Assembly (NCBI GenBank): GCA_022566515.1
Contig: JADFIT010000001.1
Coordinates: 16,685 to 80,684 of the forward strand
Origin: Gemmatimonadota bacterium
Lineage (GTDB): Bacteria; Gemmatimonadota; Gemmatimonadetes; Gemmatimonadales; GWC2-71-9
Length of the DNA: 64,000 nt
Reading direction: 5' to 3'
Below are positions 30,306 through 52,639 of this stretch, one piece after another. Every line of letters begins with the position of its first letter. The first letter of the stretch is position 1. Both the position numbers and the translations under genes were made by a program. The notes beneath the pieces are model-generated. The model made no database searches. It saw only the letters and a list, made by a program, of their open reading frames with translations, and had not been told where the DNA came from.

Positions 30306-31088
30306 TCAGAGACCCGTAGGGTTATCCAAGAACTTCCAGGGAATACCGAATTCCTGTTCAAGGTGGGCTGCCAGAGCCTTTACGCCGAACGTTTCCGTGG
30401 CATAGTGACCGCCGTAAATGACGTTGATCTCCCACTCCGCGGCGTCGAAGTGTGTGTGGTGGGTGCCCTCACCGGTCAAGAAGGTGTCCATCCCGGCGTC
30501 CCGCGCCTGCTCTATCATGGATCCACCCCCACCTGTCACGATCCCGATTCGTCTGACATCGGACGGACCAGCGGGAATCACATGGGGGGCGTCGCCGAGG
30601 AGGTTGGTCACCCTAGCCACCAGCGAATCTCTCGACTCACTAAGTGTCCCGGCAAGGCCGATAGCGGTTCCGTGATAATCGCCGAACGGCTGCGTATCAC
30701 TCACTCCCAGCTCTGCCGCTAGGATGGCGTTGTTTCCAACCGTGGGATGGCAATCGAGGGGGATGTGTGCACTGTAGAGCGCAATGTCGTGGTCCAGCAG
30801 TCTCTTGAGACGGCGCCAATGGCGGCCGGTAGCAGCCTGGGCGGGACCCCAAAACATTCCGTGATGAACCAATAGCAAGCTTGCCCTGCTGTCCACCGCG
30901 GCGTCAATCGTAACCTGACACGCATCGACTGCGGCGGCGATCCGTTGCACTGATCCCGAATTCTCCACCTGGAGACCGTTCAACGCCCCCGGGGCGTCGG
31001 GAATGTCGGATACCGCCAGGAAACCGTCCAGGTAAGTGACCAGCGTCTCGAGCGGTACCGACTGCCCCGGGCTGCTAGATCTGGTCAC
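30306..31088 (-). CDS. Nif3-like dinuclear metal centre protein (GTP cyclohydrolase 1 type 2 homologue)
   Basis: GTG start. LLLVHHGMFW, ALYSAHIPLD and FLTGEGTHHT...INVIYGGHYATE are characteristic of NIF3/YbgI. Confidence 0.88.
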   Translation of the reverse strand: MTRSSSPGQSVPLETLVTYLDGFLAVSDIPDAPGALNGLQVENSGSVQRIAAAVDACQVTIDAAVDSRASLLLVHHGMFWGPAQAATGRHWRRLKRLLDHDIALYSAHIPLDCHPTVGNNAILAAELGVSDTQPFGDYHGTAIGLAGTLSESRDSLVARVTNLLGDAPHVIPAGPSDVRRIGIVTGGGGSMIEQARDAGMDTFLTGEGTHHTHFDAAEWEINVIYGGHYATETFGVKALAAHLEQEFGIPWKFLDNPTGL

Positions 31089-31144
31089 CAGGCACCCTGA
31101 GTGATGGGAACACTAACATGACATCATGACGACATCATAATGAC

Positions 31145-31172
31145 ACAACGAAACGGGCGCCCTTCGGCGCCC
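31145..31172 (-). terminator. GC-rich hairpin terminator after the bactofilin gene
   Basis: On the minus strand GGGCGCC-gaag-GGCGCCC is followed by GTTTCGTTGTG. It lies ~70 nt after the bactofilin stop and before the Nif3 gene. Confidence 0.5.
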
Positions 31173-31242
31173 AAGTCATCTCGACGTAAGAGAGTGAAAA
31201 TCAACAACTTAGCAATGCACAGCTCACAAATGACTGCAATGC

Positions 31243-31767
31243 TCAATCGCTGGAGGCACCCTGTCCCACTGCCGGCTGCCATGAGATCCTGGAGGCCGGT
31301 TTCGCCTCCGATTTCTCAGCTTCGGCTTCCGATTTCCGCCCATCACTCTGGTCACCAGTAGGCAGCTCGCCGGTGCTTGGGTCTCGGGCGAGGGCCTTCG
31401 GATCTTCCATTCTGAGGTGCCCGTTGACCTCGCCACCCTCCTGGAGGAGAATCCGCTTGGTGGTAATGTCGCCATTGACTTGGGAGCCGGCTTGGACCTC
31501 CACGCGCTCATCAGCATAGATAGCCCCCCTCACTTCTCCACCAATGACGGCTTCGCGAGTCAAGATATCACCCTCGACTATGCCACCTTTAGCAACGAGA
31601 ACCTGTCGTTCGGCCCTTATGCTCCCCGATACCATTCCCTCCACCTTCACTACACCGTTGGTGTCCAGCCGGCCATCAATGCGCATTCCGGTGGCAACAA
31701 CCGAAAGTCCCGGCTCCCTTCCGGCTAGCTTGTCCTGTGAGGCAGTGCGGTCGTCCTTCTTGCCCAT
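31243..31767 (-). CDS. Bactofilin-family cytoskeletal protein
   Basis: The beta-helical DUF583 core has repeated G-x-[VI]-x-G motifs (IDGRLDTNGVVKVEGMVSGSIRAERQVLVAKGGIVEGDILTREAVIGGEVRGAIYADERVEVQAGSQVNGDI...). It is flanked by charged, disordered N- and C-terminal tails. Confidence 0.9.
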   Translation of the reverse strand: MGKKDDRTASQDKLAGREPGLSVVATGMRIDGRLDTNGVVKVEGMVSGSIRAERQVLVAKGGIVEGDILTREAVIGGEVRGAIYADERVEVQAGSQVNGDITTKRILLQEGGEVNGHLRMEDPKALARDPSTGELPTGDQSDGRKSEAEAEKSEAKPASRISWQPAVGQGASSD

Positions 31768-31771
31768 TCTG

Positions 31772-32584
31772 CTAATCCTCCCGGATCGTCGATTGTGGAT
31801 CGATTAAAATGTCGCCCCGTCTCTTTTCAAAATGCAAGTGCGGGGCCGTGGACCGTCCGGTGCTTCCTGAGAGCGCGATAACTTGGCCGGCATCCACTCT
31901 ACCTCCCGGCAAGACCAAGAGCCGTGACGCATGACCATACATCGTCCGGTATCCGTCGGGATGATCGACCAAAACAAACAGACCGTACTCCGGATGGAAA
32001 CCCGCTTCCGCCACGGTTCCGCCGCCCGCAGCACGGATGGGGGTGCCCCGGGGAACAGCGACGTCGATGCCGGGATGGGGCCGAAGCCCTTCTCCTGCAA
32101 CCGAGAACCCGCGTGTAACCATGCCGTGGACTACCGAATCGACCGGCCAATAGAGCGGTAGAGACGGTCCGCGCCTACCGTATAGTGGCTCAGCGTCCGG
32201 TTCCTTGGCAACCAGGGCAGGCAGAGTCGGCAATCCGTCCACGCGCTCAACAACGGTGGTCAGAGGCTCCGCGATGATCTCGGCTCCCAGAACCGTCCGG
32301 ATCTGGTCATATCGCGCCTCCAGTTCTTTCAGAGTTGCCGCCAATTGTTGCACCTGGTTGTTCTCTTCGGTGAGGCGCGCGATCTCGCCGTTCAATCCCG
32401 GGACACGGGCTGCGGTGCGGGCTATGGGCGTGTAGAGCACCGCCGCCAGAGCCACCAGAGCTACGAACACGATGCTGCCGACTACGAGCGTTTTAAAGAG
32501 CCACGCCGGCATCGAGTAGATCTGTGATTCAGGGTCCCCGTGCCAATGAAGCGAAATCGTGACGGTGGATCGGCTCTTGCTCAT
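31772..32584 (-). CDS. Membrane-anchored M23 (LytM-type) peptidoglycan metalloendopeptidase with coiled coil
   Basis: The protein has a ~28-aa cytoplasmic tail, one TM helix (LFKTLVVGSIVFVALVALAAVLY) and a coiled coil (EIARLTEENNQVQQLAATLKELEARYDQI). The M23 domain has intact HPGIDV (HxxxD) and PHLHFE (HxH) motifs. Confidence 0.9.
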   Translation of the reverse strand: MSKSRSTVTISLHWHGDPESQIYSMPAWLFKTLVVGSIVFVALVALAAVLYTPIARTAARVPGLNGEIARLTEENNQVQQLAATLKELEARYDQIRTVLGAEIIAEPLTTVVERVDGLPTLPALVAKEPDAEPLYGRRGPSLPLYWPVDSVVHGMVTRGFSVAGEGLRPHPGIDVAVPRGTPIRAAGGGTVAEAGFHPEYGLFVLVDHPDGYRTMYGHASRLLVLPGGRVDAGQVIALSGSTGRSTAPHLHFEKRRGDILIDPQSTIRED

Positions 32585-33465
32585 CCTTCAAAGGGTTCCC
32601 CTAGTACGATTTCCAGAATGCGTGCAAGATCGTCGTTAGAGTAAAAGTTGATCGTGACCCGCCCGCTGCCCTTTCCACGCAGCGCTACGAATACGTCCGT
32701 GCCGAGTTTCGTGCGCAGTACGTCCTCAACGCGCCTTATGTGGGCATGCTGAGGCGAATCGTTGCGGCTATACCTCGGCCGTCGCTTACTCGGCTTTTTG
32801 CTGCGCGTCAGCGCTTCTGCTTCTCGAACCGAAAGCCGATCCGTAACCATTCGCTCGGCCAGCAACGGAATCGTGCGCGCATCGCTCACCTGAAGCAGCG
32901 CGCGCGCGTGTCCGGTCGAGAGCTTACCGCCGTGAACGAGATCCTGCACCATCTGTGGCAGTCGCAACAGGCGAAGTGCATTAGCTACCGTTGAACGGTC
33001 CCTGCCAACGAGGTCACCCACCTCAGCCTGCGATACATCGAACTCGGTAATCATCCGCTTGTATCCGCGTGCTTCGTCGATGGGAGACAGCGCGTCCCGC
33101 TGTAGGTTTTCCACTAACGCCAGTGTAAGCAGGGTGCGATCATCCACCTCCCGTATTACGGCATCGATTGTTGGCCAACCCAGGGCTTCCGCGGCGCGGC
33201 ACCGCCTCTCGCCTGCGATCAACTCGAAGACGCCGTCGCCCCCAGGTCGCACGATGATCGGTTGCAACAGTCCCACCTGGTCCAAAGAGGTCTTCAGTTC
33301 AGCAAGAGCCTTTTCGTCAAACCCTTGTCGTGGTTGATATCGATTGGGACGAACGGCGCCGATAGGAATGTGTGTCAGCGAGCCGTCGGCGCGTGCTTCG
33401 ATGACCGTTGTGGGACCGAGCAGCGCCTCGAGTCCACGACCAAGACGGCGGGAGTTTTTTTCCAT
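32581..33465 (-). CDS. parB: Chromosome partitioning protein ParB (Spo0J)
   Basis: LGRGLEALLG, RPNRYQPRQ.FDE, GLLQPIIVR and LIAGERRCRAA (arginine patch) are present, with an HTH and a C-terminal dimerisation domain. Confidence 0.95.
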   Translation of the reverse strand: MEKNSRRLGRGLEALLGPTTVIEARADGSLTHIPIGAVRPNRYQPRQGFDEKALAELKTSLDQVGLLQPIIVRPGGDGVFELIAGERRCRAAEALGWPTIDAVIREVDDRTLLTLALVENLQRDALSPIDEARGYKRMITEFDVSQAEVGDLVGRDRSTVANALRLLRLPQMVQDLVHGGKLSTGHARALLQVSDARTIPLLAERMVTDRLSVREAEALTRSKKPSKRRPRYSRNDSPQHAHIRRVEDVLRTKLGTDVFVALRGKGSGRVTINFYSNDDLARILEIVLGEPFEG

Positions 33466-34284
33466 CTATACCGTTATTCTAGTGGTTACACCGGCACGTG
33501 AAGTCGATCGCGTGTCGGCTTCGCACGAGCGGACAAATTCTTGCGCAAAGGCCAAGTAGCTCTTCGCACCTACGGACTGGACATCGTAGAGCAAAATCGG
33601 CTTGCCGAAACTCGGTGCTTCGGCTATGCGAACATTGCGCGGAACCATGGTATCGAAAACTTTTCCACCGAAGTATTCCCTCGCTTCGCTAGCGACTTGC
33701 TTCGACAGATTGAGTCGTGCGTCGTACATGGTGAGTAGCACGCCTTGGATCGCCAAATCCGAGTTGAAATTCTGCTGCACGAGTTTGATGGTGTTCAGCA
33801 GCTGTGAGAGACCCTCCAAGGCGTAATACTCACACTGGATCGGGATCAAAACCGCATCTGCCGCGGTGAGCATGTTGAGCGTGAGAAGACCCAACGATGG
33901 CGGACAATCGATGAGCACGAAATCATAGTCGTCGCGCGTCGGGCGCAGCGCCTCGCGCATCGCAGTTTCACGACTGGCGGTATTCACCAATTCGATCTCT
34001 GCACCTACAAGATCCTGGGTGGCGGGAGCCACATCCAACGCTGGAAGGGCCACCCTTTTCCGAATAACCTCCTCCAACGACCGCTCGCCCATCAGCGCGT
34101 CGTAGAGGGAGAGGTCCAGCAGTTGGCGGTCGATGCCTACTCCGCTGGTCGCGTTGGCTTGGGGATCTGCATCGATTAGAAGCGTGGGCCGCTCCGCAGC
34201 CGCCAAAGACGCTGCCAAGTTGACGGCAGTCGTGGTCTTGCCGACTCCACCCTTTTGATTGGCAATCGCTACAACAATACCCAT
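33466..34284 (-). CDS. parA: Chromosome partitioning ATPase ParA (Soj)
   Basis: The deviant Walker A VAIANQKGGVGKTTTAVNLA is present, along with LLIDADPQANAT and FVLIDCPPSLG. Confidence 0.95.
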   Translation of the reverse strand: MGIVVAIANQKGGVGKTTTAVNLAASLAAAERPTLLIDADPQANATSGVGIDRQLLDLSLYDALMGERSLEEVIRKRVALPALDVAPATQDLVGAEIELVNTASRETAMREALRPTRDDYDFVLIDCPPSLGLLTLNMLTAADAVLIPIQCEYYALEGLSQLLNTIKLVQQNFNSDLAIQGVLLTMYDARLNLSKQVASEAREYFGGKVFDTMVPRNVRIAEAPSFGKPILLYDVQSVGAKSYLAFAQEFVRSCEADTRSTSRAGVTTRITV

Positions 34285-34435
34285 TCTTGTATAATGTCCT
34301 GACTGTTAATTACTTATGCAAAAGATAGCCTTGCGATCAACTCGCCGTCTGTCGCGCCGAATATAGGCCACAAGGTCTAGGGAGTAAAGCAGTTTTGCGA
34401 ATATCATGTTGGTCCTGGCACCAAGAGGCTCCGTT

Positions 34436-34451
34436 TGTTTCACGTGAAACA
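34436..34451. promoter_or_regulatory. parS centromere-like site (perfect 16-bp palindrome TGTTTCACGTGAAACA)
   Basis: Read directly from the sequence. It matches the canonical chromosomal parS consensus exactly. It lies 152 nt upstream of the parA start. Confidence 0.9.
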
Positions 34452-34617
34452 CGAACAAGTCAGGCAGCCTGCCATTTGTTTGACCGGGTCACCGCAGAGC
34501 GCGCAGAGAGGCATTCCGGAAGCTCATTGACGAGACGCGGCAGGCTCGTCTTGAGTCCCCCGCTTCATCTCCGGGGTTTCTACGGTAAATACGTCACCGC
34601 AATTCCGGCCCGGAGTA

Positions 34618-36540
34618 CTAGGCAGCATTCCTTTTCAGCTTCATGACCTCGAGGACGAGATTCTGCAGATCGCTGGGTGAAACCCCAGGTATTCTTCCGG
34701 CCTGGGCGAGGGACTCCGGACGGACGCGTCCAAGCTTCTCTCTCGCCTCGGTGCTGATGCTTGCAATCTTCCCATAATCGAGGTCGGCCGGCAGATGAAA
34801 GTCGGTCAGCTCCGCGAGCTTCCTGGCAGCTTCTCGTTCTCTCGCCATGTACCCCGCGTACTTCATCTCCACTTGAGCCGAGACCCACGACTCTTCGTGT
34901 GCCTGGGGCATTGGGGATCCCGTGCACCGGAAAAGGTCCTTCAAGTGGACGCCAGGCCTCTTTATAAGTTCGCTAACTCGTTGTGTTTCAGTAATTTGAC
35001 TCTCACCACACGTGTCCAGATATGCATTCACCCGATCGGGACTAACAGACGTATCTGCCGCTGCCTTTAGGACCATCTCCTCTTCTTCCAAGCGGCGCTC
35101 CAATGTCCTTTGCTCCTCGTCGTTCAACATCCCAAGCTCGAGTGCCAACGGACCAAGCCTCTTCAGGGCGTTGTCCTGGCGGAGTAGCAGCCGATACTCC
35201 GAACGAGATGTGAAGAGACGGTATGGCTCATCTACACCACGTGTCACCAGATCATCCACCAAAACACCTATGTAGCCCGCGTCTCTGCCCAAGACGATGG
35301 GTTCCTCTCCCCTGTGCCGGCGTGCTGCGTTGATTCCAGCCACAACCCCCTGCCCAGCGGCTTCCTCGTACCCCGTCGTCCCGTTGATCTGCCCGGCGAA
35401 GAACAATCCCTCCACCGCCTTGACCTCGAGCCAAGGCGTCAGCTGCTGAGGCGGATAGTAGTCGTACTCGATCGCATAGCCCGGCCGAGTCATTCGAGCC
35501 TTCTCCAGCCCCGGCACGGCATGGAGAAACGCAATCTGGGCGTCCACCGGGAGGGACGTGGAAAGCCCATTCACGTACAACTCCGATGTCTCCAGACCTT
35601 CCGGCTCCAGGAAGATCTGATGACGCTCGGCATTGGGAAACTTCACGATCTTGTCTTCGATGGAGGGGCAATAGCGCGGACCACGGCCCGCGAGAGCACC
35701 GCCGTAGAGAGCGGACTCCTGAAGCCGATCCTCAATGATGCCTCTTAGTTCTTCACCAGTCCACGTAATCCAACACGGCAACTGTTCCGGCCGCGCACTG
35801 CGCACAAACTGACTGAACCTGAATGAGTCGCCCTCTCCGTCCTGCCGCTCCAGCCTCGAAAAATCCACCGATCGGCCATCCACCCGAGGCGGTGTACCAG
35901 TCTTGAACCTGTCTACCTCGAGACCCAAGGCCTCCAGTTGCTCGGCCATGTCAACCACCGCAGCATCTCCTGCGCGTCCAGCCCCTATCCGGGTCTCCAG
36001 GCCAATGTGAATCCGGCCGCGCAAAAACGTGCCCGCAGTAATGATCACCGAGTCTCCCCGGAACTTGCGACCGTCCTGGGTGACTACGCCCATCACTCTG
36101 TCTCCGCGAATCTCTAGACGCGCCACCGTGGCCTGCACCGTCTCGAGAGCGTCCTGTTCCTCCAGCAACGTTCTCACCGCCCGGCGGTACAGTCCCCTGT
36201 CACACTGGGCACGAGGTGACCAAACCGCAGGCCCCTTGGACCGATTCAGCATCCGGAACTGTATGGTCGCCCGGTCCGCCGCCCGCCCCATGATTCCCCC
36301 GAAGGCATCTACTTCGCGTACAAGAGTGCCCTTGGCCACCCCGCCAATAGCCGGATTGCAAGACATCTGACCGATTGTCTCGATGGCAGATGTTACCATG
36401 AGGACCCGAACACCCAACCGCGCAGCCGCGCACGCCGCCTCCGCACCGGCGTGGCCTCCCCCGACAACTATGACATCGAAATCCAATGCGGACACCAGAT
36501 CAGCTCCCCTCGGTCGGCCAAGAAATTTGCGGTCACGCAA
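34618..36540 (-). CDS. mnmG: tRNA uridine-5-carboxymethylaminomethyl(34) synthesis enzyme MnmG (GidA)
   Basis: FDVIVVGGGHAGAEAA, MSCNPAIGG, GPRYCPSIEDK and GQINGTTGYEEAA are present. The true start may be the GTG at 36495 rather than 36540. Confidence 0.95.
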   Translation of the reverse strand: MRDRKFLGRPRGADLVSALDFDVIVVGGGHAGAEAACAAARLGVRVLMVTSAIETIGQMSCNPAIGGVAKGTLVREVDAFGGIMGRAADRATIQFRMLNRSKGPAVWSPRAQCDRGLYRRAVRTLLEEQDALETVQATVARLEIRGDRVMGVVTQDGRKFRGDSVIITAGTFLRGRIHIGLETRIGAGRAGDAAVVDMAEQLEALGLEVDRFKTGTPPRVDGRSVDFSRLERQDGEGDSFRFSQFVRSARPEQLPCWITWTGEELRGIIEDRLQESALYGGALAGRGPRYCPSIEDKIVKFPNAERHQIFLEPEGLETSELYVNGLSTSLPVDAQIAFLHAVPGLEKARMTRPGYAIEYDYYPPQQLTPWLEVKAVEGLFFAGQINGTTGYEEAAGQGVVAGINAARRHRGEEPIVLGRDAGYIGVLVDDLVTRGVDEPYRLFTSRSEYRLLLRQDNALKRLGPLALELGMLNDEEQRTLERRLEEEEMVLKAAADTSVSPDRVNAYLDTCGESQITETQRVSELIKRPGVHLKDLFRCTGSPMPQAHEESWVSAQVEMKYAGYMAREREAARKLAELTDFHLPADLDYGKIASISTEAREKLGRVRPESLAQAGRIPGVSPSDLQNLVLEVMKLKRNAA

Positions 36541-36830: not shown

Positions 36831-37517
36831 ATGAAGCTACACGACGAGGGAAACCACGAGGATCGCGCCGACGTCATTGATTTGCGTCTGGCTGCGCGTC
36901 TACGCACTATTGCGGACTCGCAACGCGCGCCCAGACACCTGAGGGAGCGCATCTACGCTGGCATCGCGGCCGAGTCCTTTGCGGAACGCCGGCAGCAGTT
37001 TCGTTGGGATCTGGTTGGTGCAGGGGCAGGGGGTGCCCTTCTTGCGGCAGCCGCGGCCTTCGCCATCTGGTTGGCCGTGCCGGCCAACCGACCGCAGCTT
37101 CAGGCGGAGTCCTGGGTCGACATTGCATTGAACCAGGTTACCGGCGGGGCCATGATGCAGACCGACGAGCCTGAGTCCCTCAGTTCCTGGTTCGAGTCCC
37201 AGGTGGAGTACGCGGTCGATGTGCCGGATATTCCAGGCGCCGTCCTCCTGGGCGGCCGCCTTGCCTACGTCGGCGGGATCCGCGGCGCAGCGGTGGAGTA
37301 CGACGTTCACGGCCAGAACCTCGTTTATCTCATGGTGCCCCAGGGCAGCGTGATGGACATGCTAGCCTCGCAAGGAGACACGATGGTAACGTGGTCCTCC
37401 CGTGGCTATGAGATTGTCATGTGGAAACAGGGTGGCGGAACGCGAGCGCTCTTGGGCCCGCTACCGCAGAAGGAACTCTATCAAATCGCAGATCACTGTC
37501 GCCGGACCATGACCTGA
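36831..37517 (+). CDS. Single-pass membrane protein, function unknown (anti-sigma-factor-like topology)
   Basis: It has a ~60-aa cytoplasmic N-terminus, one TM helix (GAGAGGALLAAAAAFAIWLAV) and a ~140-aa extracytoplasmic domain. There is no zinc-finger motif and no adjacent sigma factor. Confidence 0.6.
   Translation: MKLHDEGNHEDRADVIDLRLAARLRTIADSQRAPRHLRERIYAGIAAESFAERRQQFRWDLVGAGAGGALLAAAAAFAIWLAVPANRPQLQAESWVDIALNQVTGGAMMQTDEPESLSSWFESQVEYAVDVPDIPGAVLLGGRLAYVGGIRGAAVEYDVHGQNLVYLMVPQGSVMDMLASQGDTMVTWSSRGYEIVMWKQGGGTRALLGPLPQKELYQIADHCRRTMT

Positions 37518-51187: not shown

Positions 51188-52639
<1,452 letters not shown>

Follow-up and report, generated by a model that had tools for sequence, protein, structure and literature searches.

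Why should the genes that segregate a bacterial chromosome stand in one operon with a cell wall hydrolase and a bactofilin? The question is raised by a 64-kb stretch of DNA from a Gemmatimonadota bacterium (the window, here meaning the whole stretch that was analyzed), in which a parS site, parA and parB are followed immediately by the genes of an M23 metallopeptidase and a bactofilin. The answer that we consider probable is that the parABS operon here includes a peptidoglycan endopeptidase module, recruited by the bactofilin and co-expressed with ParAB. Bactofilin-M23 gene pairs and parAB-bactofilin operons are each known; what the searchable literature does not describe is their union in one apparently translationally coupled unit, kept throughout the phylum and in neighboring lineages.

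In this proposal, parABS would be extended to four genes, with transcription starting at a promoter that closely follows parS and stopping at a hairpin behind the bactofilin gene. The bactofilin would polymerize under the cytoplasmic membrane and recruit a bitopic M23 DD-endopeptidase through a conserved cytoplasmic beta-hairpin tail, and this recruitment would localize peptidoglycan cleavage, by analogy with the BacA-LmdC pair of Hyphomonas and Rhodospirillum. Placement in the parAB operon would tie production of the wall-remodeling module to ParAB expression, and its output may also be tied to ParB-parS autoregulation and to origin-proximal gene dosage. Nothing in the data implies a direct physical link between the module and ParA or ParB.

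Both strands of the region were read. The minus strand carries, in order, mnmG, a leader of 333 nucleotides (nt), parA, parB, the M23 gene, the bactofilin gene, a 154-nt spacer and a NIF3-family gene. A perfect parS and a sigma-70-like promoter precede parA, and the bactofilin gene is followed by a GC-rich terminator hairpin. The elements are as follows (aa, amino acids).

34618-36540, minus strand: mnmG
34285-34617: mnmG-parA leader, 333 nt
34436-34451: parS, with the perfectly palindromic sequence TGTTTCACGTGAAACA; the parA start is about 150 nt downstream
34360-34388, minus strand: sigma-70-like promoter from a consensus scan, with -35 hexamer TTTACT (34388-34383), a 17-nt spacer and -10 hexamer TATATT (34365-34360)
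33466-34284, minus strand: parA, 272 aa, Walker-type partition ATPase with a KGGVGKT motif (Pfam AAA_31, 5e-66; CbiA, 2e-28)
32581-33465, minus strand: parB, 294 aa, with N-terminal RRLGRGLEALLG, a GERRCRAA box, a helix-turn-helix (HTH) and a C-terminal dimerization domain
31772-32584, minus strand: LmdC-like M23 metallopeptidase, 270 aa (Pfam Peptidase_M23, 2e-30)
31776-31782, minus strand: Shine-Dalgarno-like GGGAGGA of the bactofilin gene, 8 nt ahead of its ATG and within the 3' end of the M23 gene
31243-31767, minus strand: bactofilin, 174 aa (Pfam Bactofilin, 3e-22)
31144-31173, minus strand: intrinsic-terminator-like hairpin GGGCGCC-GAAG-GGCGCCC (31154-31173), followed by TTTCGTTGTG
30306-31088, minus strand: NIF3-family gene

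The locus is the chromosomal parABS of this Gemmatimonadota bacterium, as the parS consensus, the ParA motif and the ParB domains all show. The parS site is an exact match to the consensus TGTTNCACGTGAAACA and the sole match with two or fewer mismatches in the window, where about 0.05 would be expected by chance. The ParA translation contains NQKGGVGKTT, which corresponds to the deviant Walker A motif KGGxGK[ST]. ParB contains the ParB_N (4.5e-31), HTH_ParB (9e-32) and ParB_C (1e-8) domains of Pfam and an AGERRCRAA sequence that represents the GxRRxRA box, and it matches TIGR00180 at 1e-47 and 162 bits against a cut-off of 58. All six gene identities, including those of the mnmG and NIF3 neighbors, are backed by Pfam and NCBIfam. 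No further ParB, bactofilin, M23 or ParA gene was found by tblastn in the window. A survey of 62 related loci counted 89 parS-like sites, of which 80 are no more than 1.5 kb upstream of parA; parB, the M23 gene and the bactofilin gene contain none of them.

The four genes lie very close together. The parA stop (33466-33468) abuts the parB ATG at 33465, leaving 0 nt; the parB TGA and the M23 ATG overlap as ATGA at 32581-32584 (-4 nt); and the M23 TAG at 31772-31774 is followed after 4 nt by the bactofilin ATG at 31767. Re-reading of the DNA thus returned the same three junctions as the original prediction, which had been made from the letters of the window and had proposed a single operon.

Gene order was compared by scanning one genome per GTDB species with an alignment of M23 orthologues, which gave 80 loci, and by searching the six window proteins at those loci with tblastn; a callable M23 orthologue was present at 75 loci, and at least 1 kb of upstream flank at 70. 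The bactofilin gene adjoins the M23 gene in all 75 loci with a callable orthologue, and parB stands directly upstream of the M23-bactofilin pair in 66 of the 70 with sufficient flank (64 with a parB gene model no more than 250 nt upstream, together with L038 and L056, where a frameshifted parB occupies the same place). The exceptions are L073 (Calditrichaeota), with a SpoU-type methyltransferase gene between parB and the M23 gene, and L066, L068 and L071, which have no parAB in the flank. The order (mnmG)-parA-parB-M23-bactofilin, usually continued by the NIF3 gene, is found in all loci labeled Gemmatimonadales, Gemmatimonadota or Longimicrobiales that have enough flank, and parA-parB-M23-bactofilin recurs in Krumholzibacteriia (L060) and Zixibacteria (L069 and L072). 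Two metagenome-assembled genomes (MAGs) of Gemmatimonadaceae, L055 and L065, are among the carriers of the operon. Distant relatives of the M23 protein present further arrangements: mnmG-rsmG-parA-parB-M23-bactofilin at L082, which includes the common mnmG-rsmG-parA-parB order; parA-parB-SpoU-M23-bactofilin-ATP synthase on the L083 contig; and M23-bactofilin without parAB on a KSB1 contig. As more than 65 species-level genomes share this gene order, the adjacency is not a product of chance, and the sporadic occurrence that would have spoken against the original prediction is not what was found.

Spacing is conserved along with order, as judged from heuristically assigned start codons. The gap between parA and parB has a median of -4 nt and takes precisely this value in 43 of 61 loci. 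The parB-M23 gap has the same median, which 38 of 68 loci match exactly, with gaps of no more than 20 nt in 54 of 68, and the M23-bactofilin gap has a median of 2 nt (no more than 20 nt in 50 of 75). The flanking gaps have medians of 251 nt for mnmG-parA and 151 nt for bactofilin-NIF3. The parA-parB-M23-bactofilin arrangement is therefore conserved across the phylum in both order and spacing, and three close relatives of the window (L084 to L086, with 92%, 74% and 75% M23 identity to it) show the same layout and the same overlaps by independent gene calls.

The surroundings of the unit vary between lineages. In Calditrichaeota-like lineages, a gene for a SpoU/TrmH-type RNA methyltransferase lies directly upstream of the M23-bactofilin pair (L073, 6087-6899; L083, 3866-4834; L068, 5962-6753), between parB and the M23 gene where parAB is present, and the ATP synthase operon (atpI-like, atpB, atpE, atpF onward) follows the bactofilin gene. 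One Gemmatimonadales subgroup has a bactofilin-NIF3 spacer of about 950 to 1220 nt versus about 150 nt (L005, L009, L012, L016, L021, L023 to L025, L028 to L031, L033, L036, L038, L053, L055 and L056), which implies that an extra gene has been inserted after the operon. The rsmG (gidB) gene is absent between mnmG and parA in the window and in Gemmatimonadota loci.

Expression signals bracket the four genes. Alignment of the leader of the window with those of L084 to L086 shows that it has mostly diverged, yet the parS core, the -35 element CTTTACTC and the -10 element TATATTC are invariant. The consensus scan retrieved one promoter-like site on the minus strand of the leader, TTTACT-17-TATATT, and none on the minus strand within parB. 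The parS site lies about 50 nt upstream of the -35 hexamer, so that ParB loading and spreading could modulate the parA promoter. At the other end, the only terminator-like site on the minus strand from the parA start to the region of the bactofilin end is the hairpin after the bactofilin gene, with a folding energy of about -21 kcal/mol; its stem GGGCGCC/GGCGCCC and the TTT that follows are invariant in L084 to L086, and the loop varies. As to translation, in all four sequences the bactofilin ATG is preceded by a GGAGGA-type ribosome-binding site at a distance of 8 nt, with GAGGAT at the same distance in L084 to L086. The M23 ATG has no well-spaced ribosome-binding site and overlaps the parB stop, which suggests coupling by termination and reinitiation. 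We infer that the ATGA overlap couples translation of the M23 gene to termination at parB, that the bactofilin uses its own strong ribosome-binding site, and that the four genes are co-transcribed as one unit. With parS and the promoter at its start, a conserved coupled body and a conserved terminator at its end, the locus agrees with the single operon of the original prediction, which had placed the first terminator hairpin only after the bactofilin gene.

The window carries one parS in its leader; in L084 (888-1214), L085 (2494-2801) and L086 (2549-2801) the leader has two copies, about 35 to 45 nt apart. Two copies are also present in many other Gemmatimonadota loci. Past the terminator, TATGATGT and TTAGTGT blocks are kept in all four sequences between the hairpin and the NIF3 gene (window 31089-31150, minus strand) and may represent the NIF3 promoter region.

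The neighborhood could also be inherited without any functional coupling, the M23-bactofilin pair being expressed mainly from a promoter of its own inside parB and independently of ParAB levels. The pair is indeed separable from parAB: SpoU is inserted between them in L073 and L083, parAB is missing in L066, L068, L071 and L081, and the gap between parB and the M23 gene reaches 60 to 200 nt in several Longimicrobiales loci. We nevertheless regard inheritance alone as unlikely, given that the 4-nt ATGA overlap between parB and the M23 gene persists in the 38 loci counted above, with gaps of 20 nt or less in 54, that the consensus scan gave no minus-strand promoter-like site in parB, and that the conserved terminator comes only after the bactofilin gene. 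Consistent with this, no peak of synonymous-site conservation marks the 3' end of parB, although this comparison covered four genes in only four sequences and is a weak test.

The preferred reading, a wall-remodeling module co-expressed with ParAB, has partial precedents. In Myxococcus xanthus, parA, parB, bacM and MXAN_7474 are co-transcribed (Koch et al. 2011, as reported in PMC3899335 and PMC5703909). As far as these reports describe it, that operon resembles the present one in having a bactofilin gene directly downstream of parAB and a location near the replication origin, and it differs in that no M23 gene separates parB from bacM and that the fourth gene encodes a lipoprotein of unknown function; its co-transcription is reported, whereas that of the Gemmatimonadota operon is deduced from sequence. 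BacM acts only in cell shape and is dispensable for segregation (PMC5703909, PMC3899335). In Bdellovibrio bacteriovorus, the bactofilin gene bd3904 directly follows parB (PMC10547168); that paper reports no M23 gene at this place and depicts the adjacency in a figure without analyzing it. Pairs of bactofilin and M23 genes have been cataloged in 226 species (Pohl et al. 2024, PMC10945521), a list (Figure 7-source data) that includes none of Gemmatimonadota, Longimicrobia, Myxococcus, Bdellovibrio or Caldithrix. The claim that the arrangement had not been characterized in this kind of organism therefore stands in part: no paper on a parAB-M23-bactofilin unit, or on any Gemmatimonadota bactofilin, was found in the searchable literature, and the link between parAB and a bactofilin has the forerunners just described in M. 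xanthus and Bdellovibrio.

A second bactofilin system of M. xanthus bears on whether the bactofilin-M23 complex could be a physical part of the segregation machinery, a reading that we judge rather unlikely. This is the BacNOP-PadC scaffold, which is encoded separately and positions ParABS (Lin et al. 2017, PMC5703909). It shares with the present locus the association of bactofilins with ParABS, and it differs in that the bactofilins of M. xanthus are physically linked to ParABS and depend for this on PadC, a ParB-like adaptor encoded in a separate operon. Physical coupling could take two forms. A membrane-anchored bactofilin scaffold could tether or position ParB-parS and/or ParA, like BacNOP-PadC, PopZ or HubP; conversely, ParB-origin complexes could set the site of the endopeptidase and couple origin positions to sites of growth or division. 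Beyond the BacNOP example, such coupling draws support from an operon structure and translational coupling that are conserved across the phylum and beyond, and from what is known of cell division in this group and of bactofilins elsewhere. Gemmatimonadota divide by FtsZ-based fission at 1/2, 1/3 or 1/4 positions, carry inert spherical polar appendages, and are without Min, MipZ, PomZ, MapZ and SsgAB, in an account from 2024 that makes no mention of bactofilin (PMC11271474), and the bactofilins of Borrelia organize peptidoglycan insertion at 1/2, 1/4 and 3/4 positions (PMC13393453). Against it, the window contains no gene for a PadC-like adaptor, no second ParB-like or ParB-domain gene and no second bactofilin gene; the C-terminal tails of the bactofilins are long, disordered and variable, with no motif conserved across the phylum; and M23-bactofilin pairs occur without parAB in KSB1 and other relatives. 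Caution is also advised by BacM, which is co-transcribed with parAB and is not needed for segregation in M. xanthus.

In its strongest form, this coupling would be mechanical: a membrane-anchored bactofilin-M23 assembly would mark the sites at which the cell holds ParB-origin complexes, or take its own position from these complexes, and regularly spaced origins would dictate where peptidoglycan is cut. This is quite improbable on present evidence; if true, it could explain both the division planes at 1/2, 1/3 and 1/4 and the polar spherical appendages of Gemmatimonadota. These bacteria are abundant in soil, their cell biology is barely studied, they lack the known systems of division-site placement, and their appendages are unexplained (PMC11271474); the operon offers a small and concrete set of genes for probing how origin segregation relates to local wall remodeling. 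Should the relation go no further than the co-expression that we favor, the BacA-LmdC paradigm would still be extended to a new phylum and would gain a peptidase of compact size (270 aa) together with a conserved tail motif.

The M23 protein has the following segments.

aa 1-28 (32501-32584): cytoplasmic tail
aa ~29-52: transmembrane helix, with the strongest hydrophobic stretch at aa 32-50
aa 62-99: coiled coil
aa 100-153: disordered linker
aa 155-265 (31790-32122): M23 domain

The AlphaFold2 model of the protein has a mean predicted local distance difference test (pLDDT) score of 68.8, higher in the structured parts. It presents a hairpin in the tail (strands 7-12 and 21-26), a helix at 27-59 that holds the hydrophobic segment 32-50, and a coiled-coil-like helix at 62-99. 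All 73 orthologues retain the HxxxD motif (H170 and D174), H218 and the HxH motif (H249 and H251), and with this intact M23 active site the protein is most likely a peptidoglycan endopeptidase. Foldseek matched the model to M23 structures at a TM-score of about 0.8, with the LytM domain of EnvC on top; Foldseek and sequence searches of the PDB together returned only the generic M23 fold (EnvC, ShyA, LytM, Csd1 and DipM) and did not tell clades apart. That the protein is a catalytically dead amidase regulator like EnvC, NlpD or DipM is highly improbable, for although the top Foldseek match and weak NCBIfam matches to EnvC, NlpD and DipM point in that direction, the five residues named above are invariant, and degenerate LytM factors have lost their catalytic or zinc-binding residues (PMC8416486).

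Three features define the LmdC clade (PMC8416486): a transmembrane segment, one or two coiled coils, and a LytM domain that is active. As modeled, the succession of tail, transmembrane helix, coiled coil and M23 domain is an LmdC-type architecture; the AlphaFold2 model and the 73 orthologues bear out the short tail, single transmembrane helix, coiled coil and intact HxxxD/HxH ligands that had been proposed for the window protein.

The cytoplasmic tail is conserved in pattern over a wide range. It consists of a hydrophobic strand, a turn with D or G and then S/T-R-x-hydrophobic-x-hydrophobic just before the transmembrane helix, taking the form VTIVVHxDGxLxSRxYRxP in Gemmatimonadales and LTFIVVPHGDLETRTF in Longimicrobiales and extending to Zixibacteria, Krumholzibacteriia and Calditrichaeota (Calditrichota). 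In the window protein, T9, H13 and G16 are among the conserved positions, along with the S/T-R position. A profile of tail plus transmembrane helix was built from the 73 orthologues, and its matches were assessed with 2000 shuffles. An M23 protein encoded beside a bactofilin gene in Paenibacillus (L088) scored 12.0 bits, in register, a value reached by none of the 2000 shuffles, and the motif is thus common to the Gemmatimonadota M23 proteins and a Firmicute homologue. Conservation of the tail is in keeping with a conserved cytoplasmic partner, which would most simply be the bactofilin. The known BacA-LmdC systems offer a parallel: the tail of Hyphomonas neptunium LmdC (residues 1-38) binds BacA with a dissociation constant (KD) of about 15 uM, and BacA of Rhodospirillum rubrum recruits an N-terminal fragment of LmdC (PMC10945521).

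The bactofilin has the expected beta-helical core at aa 22-118, which matches Pfam PF04519 with 79 bits against a cut-off of 27.9; in the PDB it matches BacA (2N3D, 2e-8) and the Thermus bactofilin (6RIA, 6e-5). Its N terminus reads MGKKDDRTASQ, and its closest relatives begin with MGKKDD, MARADD or MSTRRE. The bactofilins of many other relatives start with MAIFTEKG, MGIFSNP or MFSRP, resembling the membrane-targeting peptide of the MFSKQAKS or MFSKxxK type (PMC12448750), which is common in the bactofilin family and not a defining feature of it. The clade of the window (loci L001 to L004) does not have the phenylalanine-containing MxxF... peptide that most other Gemmatimonadota bactofilins keep, and the sequences suggest that direct membrane binding has been lost in this lineage. 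A client protein, PbpC, can stand in for the membrane-targeting peptide (PMC12448750), and it may be speculated by analogy that the bitopic M23 protein supplies the membrane attachment of the bactofilin in the lineage of the window.

Several of these observations count against a bactofilin-recruited endopeptidase module co-expressed with ParAB. A promoter inside parB may exist, co-transcription being read from the sequence of the locus. The M23 domain is 45% identical to that of the LmdC orthologue of Paracoccus denitrificans (L087, 87 bits), a species on the published bactofilin-M23 list (PMC10945521), and this identity is no higher than that to MepM/ShyA-type enzymes (ShyA/MepM, 77 to 85 bits); because the M23-domain scores are similar for LmdC, MepM and ShyA, membership in the LmdC clade is argued only from architecture and gene context. 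Against the same Paracoccus orthologue, the tail profile reached 3.9 bits, a value matched by 47 of the 2000 shuffles and hence not significant, and homology of the tail to that of alphaproteobacterial LmdC was not demonstrable. Finally, the bactofilin of the window does not begin with the MFSKxxK-type peptide that canonically targets bactofilins to the membrane.

Compared with the BacA-LmdC pairs of H. neptunium and R. rubrum (PMC10945521), the module shares the tight spacing of a bactofilin gene and a bitopic M23 gene and a peptidase composed of a short cytoplasmic tail, a transmembrane helix, a coiled coil and a LytM domain with an intact active site. It differs in the size of the peptidase (270 aa with one coiled-coil helix, against about 380 to 460 aa with up to three), in its embedding in the parAB operon and in a bactofilin without an MFSK-type peptide. 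The CcmA-Csd1/Csd2 system of Helicobacter pylori and the BB0246-BbbG pair of Borrelia burgdorferi likewise combine a bactofilin with LmdC-clade M23 proteins that steer local peptidoglycan remodeling; unlike the present module, they have no link to parAB, belong to helical or spirochetal hosts and involve extra partners such as Csd5 and Csd7.

The G+C content is about 60%, and the neighbors of the operon are housekeeping genes (a suf operon, fatty-acid oxidation genes and queG). Those relatives of the M23 protein that bear a name come from MAGs labeled Gemmatimonadetes, Gemmatimonadota or Gemmatimonadales. An Rfam scan of the operon and its leader returned no RNA elements, and a search for tRNA genes was likewise negative. 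An open reading frame (ORF) of 228 aa at 36831-37517 (plus strand), divergent from mnmG, has a predicted transmembrane segment and no Pfam match. Farther away, at 51203-51301 (plus strand), a thiamine pyrophosphate (TPP) riboswitch (Rfam RF00059) scores 68.3 bits, above the gathering score of 54.3; it lies directly upstream of, and slightly overlaps, an ORF of 449 aa at 51290-52639.

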